This document shows positions 734 to 9,106 of a stretch of DNA of 9,106 bases, one piece after another. The translations under genes and the position numbers were made by a program. Numbering within the stretch: position 1 is the stretch's first letter; every line of letters begins with the position of its first letter. The stretch comes from a virus. Lineage: Duplodnaviria; Heunggongvirae; Uroviricota; Caudoviricetes. The notes under the pieces were generated by a model. That model did no database searches. It had not been told where the DNA came from and saw nothing but the letters and a program-made list of their open reading frames with translations. The stretch is from IMG/VR virus record IMGVR_UViG_642979322_000006; one strand, written 5' to 3'.

Positions 734-1657
734 TCAGCTTTTCGCCAGAACGGTGACGGCCTTATCGAGTTTTTGCCATCCGCAATAGGTGATTGCCCTG
801 AACGCTGTAGCGTCATTCTGGAAAAGGCTAACCGCCCCTGATTCGGTTTTTATTACCGCCTCATCAGTTGGGGTTATAACCGTGGCTTCAACGTTAATAA
901 TCAGCTTTTGAGCGTCTATCAGCATCATGCGATCCGCCTGTTCGCTCACAATTACCGGTATTCTCAAAAGCTCTATCTGCCAGAACTCAGCATCAGTAAG
1001 CTGTAAAGCGTTTTCTACGGGCAAGATTAGCGACGACGTGGAAAGCGTGTTACCGTTCGCTATGTGCTTTTTGAAAAGCTCTATGAAGTTTTCGGCCTCA
1101 TCAGCACCATTAAGCACGCCCTCAGGGGATACGCCAGCCACCTCCTGATCACTGGAAAGAAATTTTTTATCTATTTCTTTCACCGATTCCGATGTGATCA
1201 AGTCTCTGATCGCTGAATTTGTACCAGGGGTGCTAAATTTGATTAGCTCGTTATTCAGCATCACAATAGCGCCAAGTTTGCACAGTTTTAGCGCGCTTTC
1301 GTTTACTTCTCCCTCTTTGACAGGGATTTCTTCGGCTTCTTTAAGCCATTTACTACCCTTGCCTGATATTGACTGCAATTTTGCGCCAAACGGAAGATTA
1401 AGCGCGCTGCTGATTAGCTTGCCTGGTACAGACTGCGAAAAAATATACTCGCCAAGCTCTCTTACTATCGGCTCTGCCACCAGCGACGGCATATTATCCG
1501 TAGTCATTCCGGCAACAATGGATTTTTCAAGAAATAACGATACTGCCGGATCATTTCTTTTCGTCATCTCTATAGCGTCAGCATGGCTAAATTTACACGA
1601 TGCCAGCACGCTGGCGGCGCGAACTGCTGGCACGCCTTTCATGTTTTTACAGATCAT
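734..1657 (-). CDS. HK97-fold major capsid protein homolog (Phage_capsid-like), 307 aa from the preferred start
   Basis: Long ORF (track 734..1666). AGGAGG at 1667-1672 is 9 nt from the ATG at 1657 and 0 nt from the ATG at 1666, so 1657 is preferred. C-terminal pattern LFQNDATAFRAITYCGW...AVTVL and mid-protein pattern ALKLCKLGAIVMLNNELIKF resemble conserved HK97-family capsid motifs by eye. Sits directly after terS. Confidence 0.6.
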   Translation of the reverse strand: MICKNMKGVPAVRAASVLASCKFSHADAIEMTKRNDPAVSLFLEKSIVAGMTTDNMPSLVAEPIVRELGEYIFSQSVPGKLISSALNLPFGAKLQSISGKGSKWLKEAEEIPVKEGEVNESALKLCKLGAIVMLNNELIKFSTPGTNSAIRDLITSESVKEIDKKFLSSDQEVAGVSPEGVLNGADEAENFIELFKKHIANGNTLSTSSLILPVENALQLTDAEFWQIELLRIPVIVSEQADRMMLIDAQKLIINVEATVITPTDEAVIKTESGAVSLFQNDATAFRAITYCGWQKLDKAVTVLAKS

Positions 1658-1808
1658 CTTCTTCATCCTCCTGGAAGCACGGGTTTAGTGTTTCGTGAAA
1701 ATATGGCATCAGAACAGCGGCGGCCTGTAACCGTATTTCGGTCGACTGCTGCTTGTCGTTCATGATTTCCGTGAGTACATCAATAGGGTCTGTGATGTAT
1801 TCGCTCAT
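1647..1808 (-). CDS. Small hypothetical protein (53 aa, acidic C-terminus), below the 60-aa track threshold
   Basis: Hand-translated: MSEYITDPIDVLTEIMNDKQQSTEIRLQAAAVLMPYFHETLNPCFQEDEEDDL. GAGG 8 nt upstream overlaps the terS stop; its own stop overlaps the start of the capsid-like gene. Could be spurious. Confidence 0.35.
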   Translation of the reverse strand: MSEYITDPIDVLTEIMNDKQQSTEIRLQAAAVLMPYFHETLNPCFQEDEEDDL

Positions 1809-5948: not shown

Positions 5949-6134
5949 TTACTCCTCATCCTGAATACATGTCACTGTGTGGATAATTACGCCGGATAAA
6001 CCGGCTTTAGCTGATTTGTTAATTACTGTGCTGATTGCAGCCTGGACGTTTTCGGCCTTCACGTTCTGCGTGATGCCAACGGTATAGCCGCGCTTGTTAA
6101 CAGCACGGGAAAAAACGCGGAAGGTTTTAAGCAC
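5949..6134 (-). CDS. Hypothetical protein (61 aa), GTG start
   Basis: ORF from track; start codon is GTG (plus 6132-6134 CAC), no internal Met. Overlaps the upstream ORF by 8 nt. Coding status uncertain. Confidence 0.4.
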   Translation of the reverse strand: MLKTFRVFSRAVNKRGYTVGITQNVKAENVQAAISTVINKSAKAGLSGVIIHTVTCIQDEE

Positions 6135-6330
6135 GGCACACCCCCTGACGAATACGGGCCGCGAATACCATCACGCAGCCAACTGGGGATTGCTGGCGTG
6201 CTTCCTGTTCGCTGGTGGCCTCGATGGTAATCACGCGCGGCTGTGCCGTGCTCAGGGCGATAAAACGCCAGATGTATTTATTCAGGTTGTGCGAGTCCCG
6301 CCCTTGCGGGTGTGTGGTATGATTTAACAT
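6127..6330 (-). CDS. Hypothetical protein (67 aa), first gene of the replication-side operon
   Basis: Internal ATG at 6330 of the track's 219-aa frame, with GAGGT 5 nt upstream. The longer frame is rejected because it would cross the divergent control region and the plus-strand RHH gene. Confidence 0.4.
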   Translation of the reverse strand: MLNHTTHPQGRDSHNLNKYIWRFIALSTAQPRVITIEATSEQEARQQSPVGCVMVFAARIRQGVCRA

Positions 6331-6430
6331 AGCTACCTCGATACTGTTGCTATCGTTGGTTGTTAGACGCCCTGCGAGTGTTCCACCACTGCGGGGCTTC
6401 GCTGTATTTAATGGTTGCGTATCTTCAATA

Positions 6431-6475
6431 TGGTACGTACCATTGGGTTTCAGTTTATAATGGTGGTACGTACCA
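6431..6475. promoter_or_regulatory. Twin 12-bp perfect palindromes TGGTACGTACCA (putative operators) flanking a TATAAT -10
   Basis: Palindromes at 6431-6442 (extends to a 14-bp palindrome at 6430-6443) and 6464-6475, centres 33 bp apart. TATAAT at 6456-6461. The second palindrome abuts the ATG at 6476. Lies in the divergent region between the RHH-like gene and the replication operon. Confidence 0.55.
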
Positions 6476-6658
6476 ATGCAAGAAAAAAATGAGAAACCAA
6501 AATTTGATCGCTCTGGCAGCACAAAGAAAAACATCCGCTTCGAAGACACATTGTTGCAACAAATTAACGAAGTTGCTGGGCCTGGTAATTTCAGTTCATG
6601 GGTTAAAAATGCCTGTCGTGACAAGCTACGCAAAGAAGGCATAGAACCAAAAGGCTGA
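6476..6658 (+). CDS. Small ribbon-helix-helix-like DNA-binding protein (60 aa), possibly YlcI/DUF3950-like
   Basis: ATG 6476 with GGTGG 9 nt upstream. Motif NIRFEDTLLQQINEVAGPGNFSSWVKNACRDKL fits a strand-helix-helix pattern and resembles small prophage regulators from memory. The only convincing plus-strand gene in the window. Confidence 0.55.
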   Translation: MQEKNEKPKFDRSGSTKKNIRFEDTLLQQINEVAGPGNFSSWVKNACRDKLRKEGIEPKG

Positions 6659-6749
6659 TAGTCCACCAGCAAGCCAGCACACTGAGCACATTGCCCACCA
6701 GACAGCAAATCGCTATGATGTTCGGGCTTATGTTTAGTGTTTTCCCATT

Positions 6750-6777
6750 GGCGACCGCCACAGGTCGCCTTTGTTTT
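6750..6777 (+). terminator. Rho-independent terminator (plus strand)
   Basis: 7-bp GC-rich stem GGCGACC / GGTCGCC with 6-nt loop, followed by TTTGTTTT; about 95 bp downstream of the RHH gene stop, in the convergent gap before alpA. Confidence 0.55.
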
Positions 6778-6796
6778 ATGTGTCATATGCTCCCCT

Positions 6797-7021
6797 TTAC
6801 ACTGCCTTACCTGAATTAATGCGATCCCGGCTTTTAACCCATTCCATAACCTCGGACAGCAGCCACCCTACAGAACGACCGCCCAGATTAAGACGTGACG
6901 GAAAGCGCCCTTTTTTCTCCAGTTCGTAGCGTGTAGTGCGGCACACTCCTGTTAACTTACGGCATTCATCCTCACGGATTACGCGATCTGATAGTGATTG
7001 AAATTGTGTATTTTGATTCAT
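6797..7021 (-). CDS. alpA: AlpA-family prophage transcriptional regulator (HTH, excisionase-like)
   Basis: 74-aa ORF. Motif RKLTGVCRTTRYELEKKGRFPSRLNLGGRSVGWLLSEVMEWVKSR matches the AlpA (Phage_AlpA) signature. Position downstream of int is typical. Confidence 0.88.
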   Translation of the reverse strand: MNQNTQFQSLSDRVIREDECRKLTGVCRTTRYELEKKGRFPSRLNLGGRSVGWLLSEVMEWVKSRDRINSGKAV

Positions 7022-7056
7022 AAAAAAACGTCCTCGAACGTTGCCGAACGAGGACG
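7022..7056 (-). terminator. Intrinsic terminator-like hairpin plus U7 tract abutting the alpA start codon
   Basis: 8-bp stem CGTCCTCG (7029-7036) / CGAGGACG (7049-7056) with 12-nt loop. On the minus strand it is followed by UUUUUUU (7028-7022), then the alpA AUG. The 3' arm contains the only SD-like GAGG for alpA. Confidence 0.55.
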
Positions 7057-7083
7057 ATTCTAGGCGGTAGTAAAACGCCGTTT

Positions 7084-7116
7084 GTGTGATATCACACTAC
7101 CAGCACGTGATATCAC
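7084..7116. promoter_or_regulatory. Twin palindromes GTGATATCAC (putative operator pair) upstream of alpA
   Basis: 14-bp perfect palindrome GTGTGATATCACAC at 7084-7097 and 10-bp palindrome GTGATATCAC at 7107-7116, centres 21 bp apart. The second overlaps the stop codon of the 257-aa ORF. Confidence 0.45.
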
Positions 7117-7886
7117 TTTTTACGTTTTTGTTGAGATTCACGCCCCAAATACTTTTGCCATGTCTGCCAATGTGTTTTTGGAAATTCTATCCCTCTGGAT
7201 GCAGCTATAGAATCAATTAAATCTGCTATTTTAGGTAATGATTCCGTGTCCAGGTCTACATCACCCATTTCTGGAATAAGTTTAATTAAAGAGTAAATAA
7301 CCTCATTCCTTTTTGACGATGCTTTTGGGCTATCTTCTGTTATCTTCGGGAAGTCTCCCGTATTTTTTATATTATCTAAATCACTAGCCATCACACACAA
7401 ATAGTTAACATCAAATTCATAACCACCCTTACAAAAAACATACATGAGATTATCATCACCATACTTATTCGTAAGATGAGAACATTTTATATATTGTCTC
7501 ATGCTAAATTCGACATCAGCAAAAACATATGCCGGAGTATAATAAAACCCTGATAAGCTGCTAACATAATAACATTTGATAGAATTCCCTACAGGACCAA
7601 TAATGGCACTATCTAAAAATTCAGTGTCACCAGTTAAACCAACTGTAAAATTACTTCCAAAAACAGCAGATTCATCATTGAAAGGATATTTTATTAATTC
7701 TTCCTCATTACAACCATTGATAAAATGACATAATGAAAAATTGAATTTTTTAGCATCAATTTTTGGTATATATACAGAAATATTAAGAGCACCTATATAT
7801 GCGTAATGATAAAGATCTTTTATTGCACAGCCTAACTTTTCTGCCGCTTCAGGTAACGGATAATAGAGTCTTTTAGGTAATTTCAT
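7113..7886 (-). CDS. Orphan hypothetical protein (257 aa), AT-rich cargo gene between int and alpA
   Basis: ORF from track. ATG 7886 overlaps the int stop as ATGA; AAGGTGG 4 nt upstream. Visibly lower GC than flanking genes. Rich in Y/F/N/K/C, acidic helical C-terminal region, no motif I can assign. Confidence 0.75.
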   Translation of the reverse strand: MKLPKRLYYPLPEAAEKLGCAIKDLYHYAYIGALNISVYIPKIDAKKFNFSLCHFINGCNEEELIKYPFNDESAVFGSNFTVGLTGDTEFLDSAIIGPVGNSIKCYYVSSLSGFYYTPAYVFADVEFSMRQYIKCSHLTNKYGDDNLMYVFCKGGYEFDVNYLCVMASDLDNIKNTGDFPKITEDSPKASSKRNEVIYSLIKLIPEMGDVDLDTESLPKIADLIDSIAASRGIEFPKTHWQTWQKYLGRESQQKRKK

Positions 7887-9106
7887 TTGGCCACCTTCAG
7901 CATAACAATATTTTCATGATTTCCAGCCAGCACATCGAGACGCTCAACCCATAGATTAAGAGCGTCACGTTTTGCATCAAGATAACGGGAGTGATTATAG
8001 ACTCGTTGCATTCCTGGCAACTGGTGCGCGGTAAGCTGCTCCACAACGTGCGGTTCCACGCCTAAATCGTTCAGCATCGTTGTAAACGTGTGCCGGATGT
8101 CGTGCAACGTCCAGGGGGCTTGATTAATGCGTCTGTGTGCCGTTCTTCCGTACTCTGATACGGATGATTGCCCTTTCAGTTCTCCGAGCAATAATCCCGT
8201 GTGCCTGTTCTGCTCCACCAGCTTCATGACAAACGGCAAGATCGCTTCCGGTATTGGCCTGAATATTGCTACCTTCGTTTTGCTGTGTTCTTTCGGCACG
8301 GTCCAGAGCATTTCTTTAAAATCCCATTCCTGGACCTCAGAGCGTCTTAGCTCAGTGGTACGACATCCGAAGACAATCAGGAGGCGAATCAGGGCGCTGT
8401 AGTACGGTGGGTAAATTTTTTCATCAAGGGCGCGTAGTAATTCCCCAAGCTCCTTGTTTGTTAGTACGCGCTCGCTTATTTCTGCTTTTTTCCCAACATC
8501 ACCGACAACCATATCATCAAGAACGTTGCTGATTGCGTATCGTCGTTTTCGGCAGTACTTAAGCGCCTGTTTGCATACCTGTAGCAAAAATCCGGCTGAT
8601 ACCGGATTACGCTTAGCAAGCTGGTCAAAACAGGCCAGCCAGTGGCGTAGCTCGCATTTTTCCAGTGGCATAGCGCCAATCTGGCTAATTATGTGTTTAT
8701 TGATCCGGCTTTTCAGTGATTCGTAGTCAGTGCGCTTTTCCTTTGCGTACGATTCAAGCCAGTAAGTGAGCGCTTCCTTAACCGTCACGGGGGCTAACGC
8801 GTCCTGTACAGCATGATTAAGTTCATAGCGCGGATTTTTCCCCTCAGCCAGCCAGGCGCGACACTGTGCCGCTTTTTCCCTGGCAGCTTTCAGGCTCAGA
8901 TCGGGATAATTGCCCAGCCTCAGACGTTCCGGTGATATCTGCCTACCAGTTCCGGCCCTGTAAGTGAAATACCAGGTTAACAGGCCATTGGTTGAATGCC
9001 TTACGCTAAGGTTGCCACCATCATTAAAAAAGGTGTTTTTTGTGGTTGGTGATCCGCTTAATTTTCGTAAAAGAGTGTCGCTAAGTCTATGAATTGCCCT
9101 GCTCAT
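7883..9106 (-). CDS. int: Tyrosine site-specific integrase (P4-type)
   Basis: 407-aa ORF. N-terminal region typical of P4-like integrases (FNDGGNLSVRHSTNGLLTWYFTYR...LGNYPDLSLKAAREKA). C-terminal catalytic region with HDIRHTF and RVYNHSRYLD (catalytic Tyr). ATG is at 9104-9106, so upstream signals are outside the window and the true start could lie beyond the edge. Confidence 0.92.
   Translation of the reverse strand: MSRAIHRLSDTLLRKLSGSPTTKNTFFNDGGNLSVRHSTNGLLTWYFTYRAGTGRQISPERLRLGNYPDLSLKAAREKAAQCRAWLAEGKNPRYELNHAVQDALAPVTVKEALTYWLESYAKEKRTDYESLKSRINKHIISQIGAMPLEKCELRHWLACFDQLAKRNPVSAGFLLQVCKQALKYCRKRRYAISNVLDDMVVGDVGKKAEISERVLTNKELGELLRALDEKIYPPYYSALIRLLIVFGCRTTELRRSEVQEWDFKEMLWTVPKEHSKTKVAIFRPIPEAILPFVMKLVEQNRHTGLLLGELKGQSSVSEYGRTAHRRINQAPWTLHDIRHTFTTMLNDLGVEPHVVEQLTAHQLPGMQRVYNHSRYLDAKRDALNLWVERLDVLAGNHENIVMLKVAK

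Follow-up and report, generated by a model that had tools for sequence, protein, structure and literature searches.

A modular winged-helix protein family beside alpA in satellites of Enterobacterales: paired palindromes and a candidate regulatory role

The divergent domains of Stl, the master repressor of SaPIs (pathogenicity islands in Staphylococcus aureus), bind helper-phage proteins, and the BrxR and CapW regulators of defence islands are winged helix-turn-helix (wHTH)-WYL proteins bound to inverted repeats. SaPIs are phage-inducible chromosomal islands (PICIs) of Gram-positive bacteria; in the PICIs of Gram-negative bacteria, the master activator is AlpA, which is induced by the helper and activates itself (PMC6092414; also PMC11773190); the repressor of these islands and the helper-encoded inducer of alpA were left unidentified (PMC6092414). 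The window analysed here, that is, the whole 9,106-nucleotide stretch of IMG/VR record IMGVR_UViG_642979322_000006, is an 8.5-kb satellite island of Escherichia coli O157:H7 inserted between clpS and cspD. Between its int and alpA genes lies an open reading frame (ORF) of 257 amino acids (WP_000775337, annotated as a hypothetical protein; 7113-7886, minus strand), one member of a modular family of uncharacterised proteins that is confined to PICI-type satellites of Enterobacterales. Our tentative view is that this ORF most likely encodes a modular DNA-binding sensor-regulator that is intrinsic to the satellite and acts on the control region of alpA. A DNA-binding fold, co-production with Int, a family never found away from alpA, paired operator-like sites that are specific to each lineage and a fast-exchanging middle domain all fit such a role.

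Like Stl, the ORF lies next to int and combines an N-terminal helix-turn-helix (HTH) with divergent, swappable domains; like Stl, it would be expressed in the quiescent state and would control the first gene of the satellite lytic programme. The likeness, an HTH plus a variable partner-binding domain beside int, is one of architecture and not of homology, and no sequence or fold relationship to Stl is detectable beyond a generic HTH. The ORF further differs from Stl in being co-directional with the gene it would control, where Stl is divergent, in having a second, C-terminal domain that apparently carries the operator specificity, and in being present in a minority of islands only. AlpA, Xis, Vis and RdfS (Pfam HTH_17 and Phage_AlpA) are single-domain proteins of 55 to 80 residues, whereas the ORF has about 210 further residues in two extra domains and, unlike them, stays below the Pfam thresholds. 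With BrxR and CapW it shares a winged-helix N-terminus, followed by a proposed ligand- or partner-sensing domain and then a C-terminal domain, as well as cognate palindromes beside the operon that would be controlled and an AT-rich mobile context. However, it has no WYL domain and no sequence similarity to them, its sites are found downstream of the ORF itself, ahead of alpA, and the controlled "operon" would be the satellite itself. It is possible, if doubtful, that a subset of Gram-negative PICIs and capsid-forming PICIs (cfPICIs) carries a hitherto unrecognised, Stl-like master regulator built from three exchangeable modules, a conserved winged helix, a swappable helper sensor and an operator-specific C-terminus with matching palindromes before alpA. 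If true, this gene would decide which helper phage can switch the satellite on, and exchange of the middle domain would be how satellites change helpers.

A member of the ORF family lies directly 5' of alpA, with a gap of 45-125 nt, in each of about 25 distinct loci examined, from Escherichia, Salmonella, Klebsiella, Providencia and metagenome contigs, and distant relatives (E of about 1e-10 to 1e-14) likewise adjoin alpA. Most of the loci also show an overlap of 4 or 8 nt between the ORF and the stop of a 407-aa P4-type integrase, with int identities of 51-100% among ORF-carrying loci. The adjacency to alpA is kept whichever of several chromosomal sites the satellite occupies and however its late region is made up; Klebsiella elements that have genes for capsid, protease and portal are among the examples. 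In one locus (L039), 2.6 kb of small genes separate int from the ORF, yet the ORF abuts alpA, and in two others (L024 and L026) it is found about 320 nt from int and still abutting alpA. The constant partner of the ORF is thus alpA and not int.

Downstream of the ORF we noticed two operator-like boxes, both perfect 10-bp palindromes of the sequence GTGATATCAC. Box 1 (7107-7116) overlaps the ORF stop codon, and box 2 (7086-7095) follows at a distance of 21 bp, centred at about -40.5 of the predicted alpA start; the chance expectation for the pattern in the window is 0.17 matches. In the loci examined, a palindrome pair spaced by 20-22 bp is always located between the body of the ORF and alpA. 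The GTGAWWTCAC pair, with this same spacing, occurs in 13 of 13 distinct loci with the C-terminal domain called type 1 here, including Providencia, where the protein is only 33% identical, L034, which keeps these boxes with a strongly diverged N-terminus, and L036, in which the boxes are displaced 24 nt past the stop codon and are still kept. At the same place and spacing, type-2 ORFs have TGGAAATTTCCA twice within their final codons, L024 and L026 have TGGAATATTCCA twice, L037 has the palindrome GCAATATTGC, present twice as GCAATATT(A/G)C, and L027, L039 and L041 show related inverted repeats at the corresponding place. The boxes are absent from islands that encode the same AlpA without the ORF (L003 and L004) and from an island with this AlpA (L028) that has an unrelated DUF6387 gene in its place.

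Across these very distant loci, four C-terminal subtypes are followed by at least four box types. The box type is independent of the N-terminus, with identical boxes in alleles of 36-82% N-terminal identity and more N-terminal variation within type 1 than between types, and it is independent of AlpA, whose CRTTRY recognition helix is common to loci that have different boxes and to loci that have no boxes. The simplest reading would be that the C-terminal domain reads the boxes. The palindromes are brought by the ORF into the alpA upstream region and the gene is never found apart from alpA, which argues for a regulatory role in the satellite rather than for free-standing cargo.

Three other assignments of the boxes were considered and rejected. 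As AlpA autoregulation sites they are not consistent with the occurrence of the same AlpA without boxes, or of different boxes with the same AlpA recognition helix. Reading by the N-terminal HTH would require a correlation between N-terminal divergence and box type, and there is none. As integrase arm sites they are misplaced, being about 2 kb from the island end; no box was found near the int 5' side, at the int-proximal island end, in L001. In L021-L023, L042 and L044, the TGGAAATTTCCA pair falls in the last ~45 nt of the ORF homologue and imposes an E-I-S / x-I-S peptide repeat in the C-terminal tail; since the pair is inside the type-2 coding sequence, one stretch of DNA provides codons and, at the same time, a likely operator.

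The structure of the 257-aa protein was modelled with AlphaFold2 (predicted local distance difference test score, pLDDT, of 77.9) and used for fold searches against the PDB and BFVD. The N-terminal domain (residues 1-48; 7743-7886, minus) is a wHTH of the Xis/AlpA/MerR/BldC type and is conserved in all family lineages. Its best structural matches are excisionases and recombination directionality factors (RDFs), namely Pukovnik Xis, RdfS and the AlpA-family excisionase of GIsul2, and it has the winged-helix fold of Xis. Matches to MerR folds are confined to the HTH and have a high root-mean-square deviation; the long coiled-coil helix of MerR is not seen in the model, which has β-strands from residue 51 on. 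The N-terminal profile of the family does not match the neighbouring AlpA. The hypervariable middle domain (residues 49-182; 7341-7742, minus), proposed as the sensor or partner-binding domain, has the lowest GC content of the gene and is modelled as a β-rich fold at residues about 50-166, for which no match was found in either database. Only G113, F114 and E126 are invariant in this domain in the family alignment, leaving one conserved acidic residue. The type-1 C-terminal domain (residues 183-257; 7116-7340, minus) is modelled as a small helical domain with a basic tail (residues 187-255) and contains the motif GIEFPKTHWQTWQKYLGR; the conserved motif of the C-terminal domain is G-[IL]-x-x-P-x(3,4)-T-[ILV]-x-x-[WY]-[LI]-[KR]. 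We propose it as the operator-specific DNA-binding module; the fold search returned no significant match for it and did not recognise it as DNA-binding.

Compared with the window protein, the E. coli and Salmonella alleles show 36-82% identity over the N-terminal part, 13-48% over the middle and 91-95% over the C-terminal part, and these conserved ends around a variable middle mark the gene as a mosaic. Elsewhere in the family the same ends enclose middles that are longer and unrelated, or the C-terminus is of the second type.

Between box 2 and alpA, a -10-like hexamer TAGAAT (7057-7062, minus) starts 23 nt after the box and ends one nucleotide before the stem of an RNA hairpin. A corresponding nAnnAT hexamer is located 22-23 nt after box 2 in 11 of the 13 type-1 loci, ending 1-2 nt before the stem-loop, and no recognisable -35 was identified for the predicted alpA promoter in type-1 loci. 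If the hexamer is taken as the -10, the boxes are centred near -40.5 and -61.5 and the predicted alpA start is at about 7050, within the 5' arm of the stem. An operator of the MerR type would be inside the 19-20-bp spacer between -35 and -10; here the boxes are upstream of the -35 position. At the place of the alpA promoter, the DUF6387 cassette shows TTGCAC-16-TAAGAT and lacks boxes.

The hairpin (7029-7056, minus) has an 8-bp stem whose 3' arm includes the alpA Shine-Dalgarno (SD) sequence, GAGGA; next come U7 (7022-7028) and the alpA ATG. Its free energy is -19.1 kcal/mol (z -3.4), and across 10 loci compensatory changes are found in six of the eight pairs, with 95% of cells paired against 39-50% in slid controls; its G-U pairs occur in the alpA sense orientation. 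A search of 6700-8000 against Rfam gave no credible family for it. The hairpin was also seen at L005, L008, L010, L012, L017, L019, L021-23, L028, L033, L034, L042 and L044, and its presence in the DUF6387 island (L028) assigns it to the alpA lineage and not to the ORF. The hairpin would terminate or translationally silence read-through from int and the ORF, and transcripts from the alpA promoter would lack its 5' arm. A direct repeat, GAAC-N6-GAAC or inversely GTTC-N6-GTTC, is conserved in the loop and hints at a protein-binding site or at loop inversion. In L005, L012, L016, L017, L019 and L034 the -10-like hexamer includes an ATG, 36 nt upstream of where alpA is annotated to start, that is in frame with alpA through the hairpin and would add 12 residues, ML(L/S)NxN(E/K)... 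This ATG was rejected as the true alpA start, having no SD and being absent or out of frame in other loci, and is probably unused.

In the quiescent island, the ORF protein would be made at a low constitutive level together with Int by translational coupling. Its C-terminal helical domain would bind both boxes, just past its own stop codon and about 30 nt upstream of the alpA hairpin, thereby occupying sites near -40.5 and -61.5 of a promoter without a -35. The hairpin would terminate the read-through from int and the ORF or hide its alpA SD, leaving alpA to be read from its own promoter only. The hypervariable middle domain would be the specificity module, most plausibly contacting a helper-phage product and so changing the occupancy or activity of the boxes, and this contact would couple alpA expression to a particular helper. 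The N-terminal winged helix could read a second DNA site, or contact Int or AlpA. Box binding by the protein, control of alpA and phage sensing by the middle domain are what we infer from this arrangement.

The first-pass annotation, made from the letters alone, had described an AT-rich orphan gene with its own SD, translationally coupled to int, with a possible DNA-binding segment at its N-terminus. The position and the coupling are as it stated; the strand is minus. The ORF ATG (7886-7884) and the TGA of int (7885-7883) have an ATGA in common, and an SD-like AAGGTGG (7891-7897, minus) is located 4 nt 5' of the ATG, within the final int codons. The upstream int (7883-9106, minus, from the ORF listing) encodes a 407-aa tyrosine integrase of the P4 type with an arm-binding domain, and its C-terminal tail LKV(A/K)K is kept wherever a member of the ORF family is coupled to int. 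AT-richness was also confirmed, with a GC content of 0.323 for the whole gene against 0.489 for int (0.29-0.33 against 0.45-0.53 for int and alpA in 300-nt windows), and every homologue in other loci is likewise GC-poor, by 5-17 points. The N-terminal segment corresponds to the Xis/AlpA/MerR-like winged helix in the model; structure prediction and fold search, which had been suggested as a check, placed the N-terminus and left the middle and C-terminal domains without a match. "Orphan", on the other hand, holds only in the sense of unannotated. A word-indexed search gave 19 clusters (90% identity), which come from Escherichia, Salmonella, Klebsiella and Providencia and are all called hypothetical, and an exhaustive profile search gave 390 representative relatives at E<=1e-3, of which 54 at E<=1e-30.

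Family searches with the 257-aa protein returned nothing significant in Pfam or PADLOC, which had been suggested at the same time, or in NCBIfam or PHROGs, and no Pfam match even at E<=10. Among 40 diverse family members, Pfam recognised no domain apart from one weak HTH_17 match (E 0.0026) in a single protein. The only hit among the 5,027 models of PADLOC-DB v2 was a weak match to mad1 (E 0.015) covering HTH residues 8-34 only, and four other members and the DUF6387 protein gave nothing there, or a chance match at E 0.007. By tblastn, none of 50,697 phage and 72,556 plasmid records gave a match, a profile search of PDB sequences gave nothing, and a scan of genome contigs with one narrow peptide pattern gave no relative. 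Nuclease, NTPase, membrane and toxin domains and conserved catalytic-looking motifs were not found in the family.

The slot between int and alpA is variable, as had been proposed. In islands at clpS/cspD without the ORF, the integrase is 94% identical over 403 aa, AlpA shows no difference from residue 12 on, and a non-coding spacer of ~410 bp replaces the ORF. The exchanged segment begins near int codon 404, ends near alpA codon 11 and hence includes the whole alpA upstream region. The spacer, which replaces the ORF in most related islands, was located at about 9310-9715 of L003 and about 9315-9730 of L004 (minus); it has AATATC(G/T) at intervals of about 10 bp, an inverted repeat AATCGTCGA...TCGACGATT and a TTGACA start beside the int stop, and may represent a different control module for alpA or else an RNA gene. 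In the island of E. coli PEC414 at the rcnR site, the slot (L028 3894-4748) holds a 284-aa DUF6387 protein (PF19924; GC 0.34) without a PADLOC match. The DUF6387 gene resembles the ORF in its place in a related E. coli island, its 4-nt overlap with int and its similarly low GC; it differs in being unrelated in sequence, in having no HTH and no downstream palindromes, and in the recognisable -35 of the adjacent alpA promoter. Synteny in all related islands, which had been named beforehand as an argument against cargo, is seen in part: the ORF forms a deep lineage across four genera, but not all related islands carry it.

Several observations weigh against the sensor-regulator reading. The ORF is missing from islands whose int and alpA are nearly the same, which makes it dispensable for the PICI cycle in general, and the conserved 3' part of the gene is present in only 66 of 5,426 complete E. 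coli genomes, mostly Shiga-toxigenic E. coli (STEC). The unrelated DUF6387 gene with its 4-nt int overlap fits a cargo hotspot, and low GC with a hypervariable domain is equally typical of defence genes. Part of the correlation between boxes and C-terminus is due to the physical linkage of the boxes with the C-terminal codons, and the promoter geometry, as read from aligned loci, is a consensus that is not clear in the type-2 loci. Some of these points lead to the proposal of the first-pass annotation, a single-gene defence or helper-interference factor, for which we found no positive evidence and which we regard as rather unlikely. The gene would then be accessory cargo expressed from the int transcript in the lysogenic state, its variable domain binding a phage protein or its winged helix binding phage DNA to block a competing phage or the helper in the manner of other single proteins encoded by satellites, and the boxes would be incidental or for local control only. 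A slot that is empty or filled by DUF6387 or the ORF family, two occupants that are both AT-rich and int-coupled, and a middle domain that recombines between alleles all agree with this. PICI immune systems are reported to be placed terminally, 5' or 3', and those discovered there include single-gene systems that PADLOC or DefenseFinder did not know (PMC11364771); CapR of the PICI-like element (PLE) satellite, according to a passage of PMC10111431 that cites it, is a DNA-binding repressor of helper genes and thus a precedent. However, neither the window protein nor four other members matched any of the PADLOC models significantly, no effector-type domain was recognised, with a single conserved acidic residue in the middle domain, and the family was not found in phages, plasmids or other hotspots. 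The gene is instead always next to alpA and accompanied by covarying palindromes, for which a portable defence gene has no obvious need.

The structural matches of the N-terminus to excisionases and RDFs raise the question of whether the protein is a directionality or integration-control factor for the linked Int, with the N-terminus bending att DNA or contacting Int and the remainder timing excision. The coupling to int in most loci, alongside the conserved int C-terminal tail, and the division of AlpA-family proteins into regulators and excisionases (PMC11773190) would be in line with it. We nevertheless find this improbable, considering that islands lacking the ORF use a 94% identical int at the same att site, that the genes of L039, L024 and L026 are detached from int and still abut alpA, that the palindromes are about 2 kb from the island end where the attP arms would be, with no box near the int 5' side in L001, and that known RDFs are smaller than this protein by a factor of three to four. 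Nor do we give much credence to the boxes being sites for another factor (Int, a host regulator, or a repressor or Cro-like protein of the helper) and travelling with the 3' end of an ORF that would itself be a moron of unrelated function. Linkage alone produces some co-variation, as the boxes adjoin or overlap the C-terminal codons; the C-terminal fold is not one recognised as DNA-binding, and the half-site TATCAC has what we take to be a resemblance to a lambdoid operator half-site. Against this, the following of four C-terminal subtypes by at least four box types in very distant loci, with the 20-22-bp spacing kept, would require a matching set of specificities in the external factor, and in L036 the boxes are retained though moved 24 nt past the stop codon.

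For Gram-negative PICIs, the means by which helper phages activate alpA and the existence of a satellite's own repressor or sensor are both open questions (PMC6092414). Within 900 bp, the locus offers a testable candidate, with a protein, a likely operator, a predicted promoter and an insulating hairpin. Natural alleles, in which the middle is exchanged and the C-terminus and boxes are identical, and several protein-operator pairs can be used for specificity swaps. The SD-sequestering hairpin, being general in this alpA lineage, matters for the design of reporter constructs. If the gene is a defence or interference factor instead, it would be a new single-gene system, mainly of Shiga-toxigenic E. 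coli (O157:H7, O145:H28, O103:H2).

The island as a whole has the order int, ORF, alpA, divergent YlcI/YnfO, Icd-like, DUF4222, DUF5906 primase, terS and major capsid. The ORF is separated by 91 nt from the downstream alpA (6797-7021, minus), which encodes the 74-aa master activator of Gram-negative PICIs (function from PMC6092414). With int, alpA, primase-replicase and packaging genes all co-oriented and a specific chromosomal site, the element has the features of a Gram-negative or capsid-bearing PICI. The only late genes of the E. coli island are the major capsid gene and terS (window 734-1666 and 1820-2425), and Klebsiella relatives with the same int-ORF-alpA module have capsid, S78 protease and portal genes in a cfPICI-like arrangement (L005 13769-16711). 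From this difference in late regions, the regulatory module is common to satellites with different packaging strategies.

A listed 219-aa ORF (window 6127-6786, minus) is probably over-extended, as RefSeq has only the Icd-like protein at 6127-6534, and its upstream part overlaps the YlcI/YnfO gene on the opposite strand. The region from which the Icd-like operon and YlcI/YnfO diverge has a second palindrome pair, the perfect 12-bp TGGTACGTACCA at 6431-6442 and 6464-6475 (33 bp apart), of which the second copy ends one base before the YlcI/YnfO ATG at 6476. This pair is probably a second operator, for a different regulator. Related islands carry the TGG-N6-CCA variants TGGTTCGTTCCA and TGGAACGAACCA near the corresponding place.
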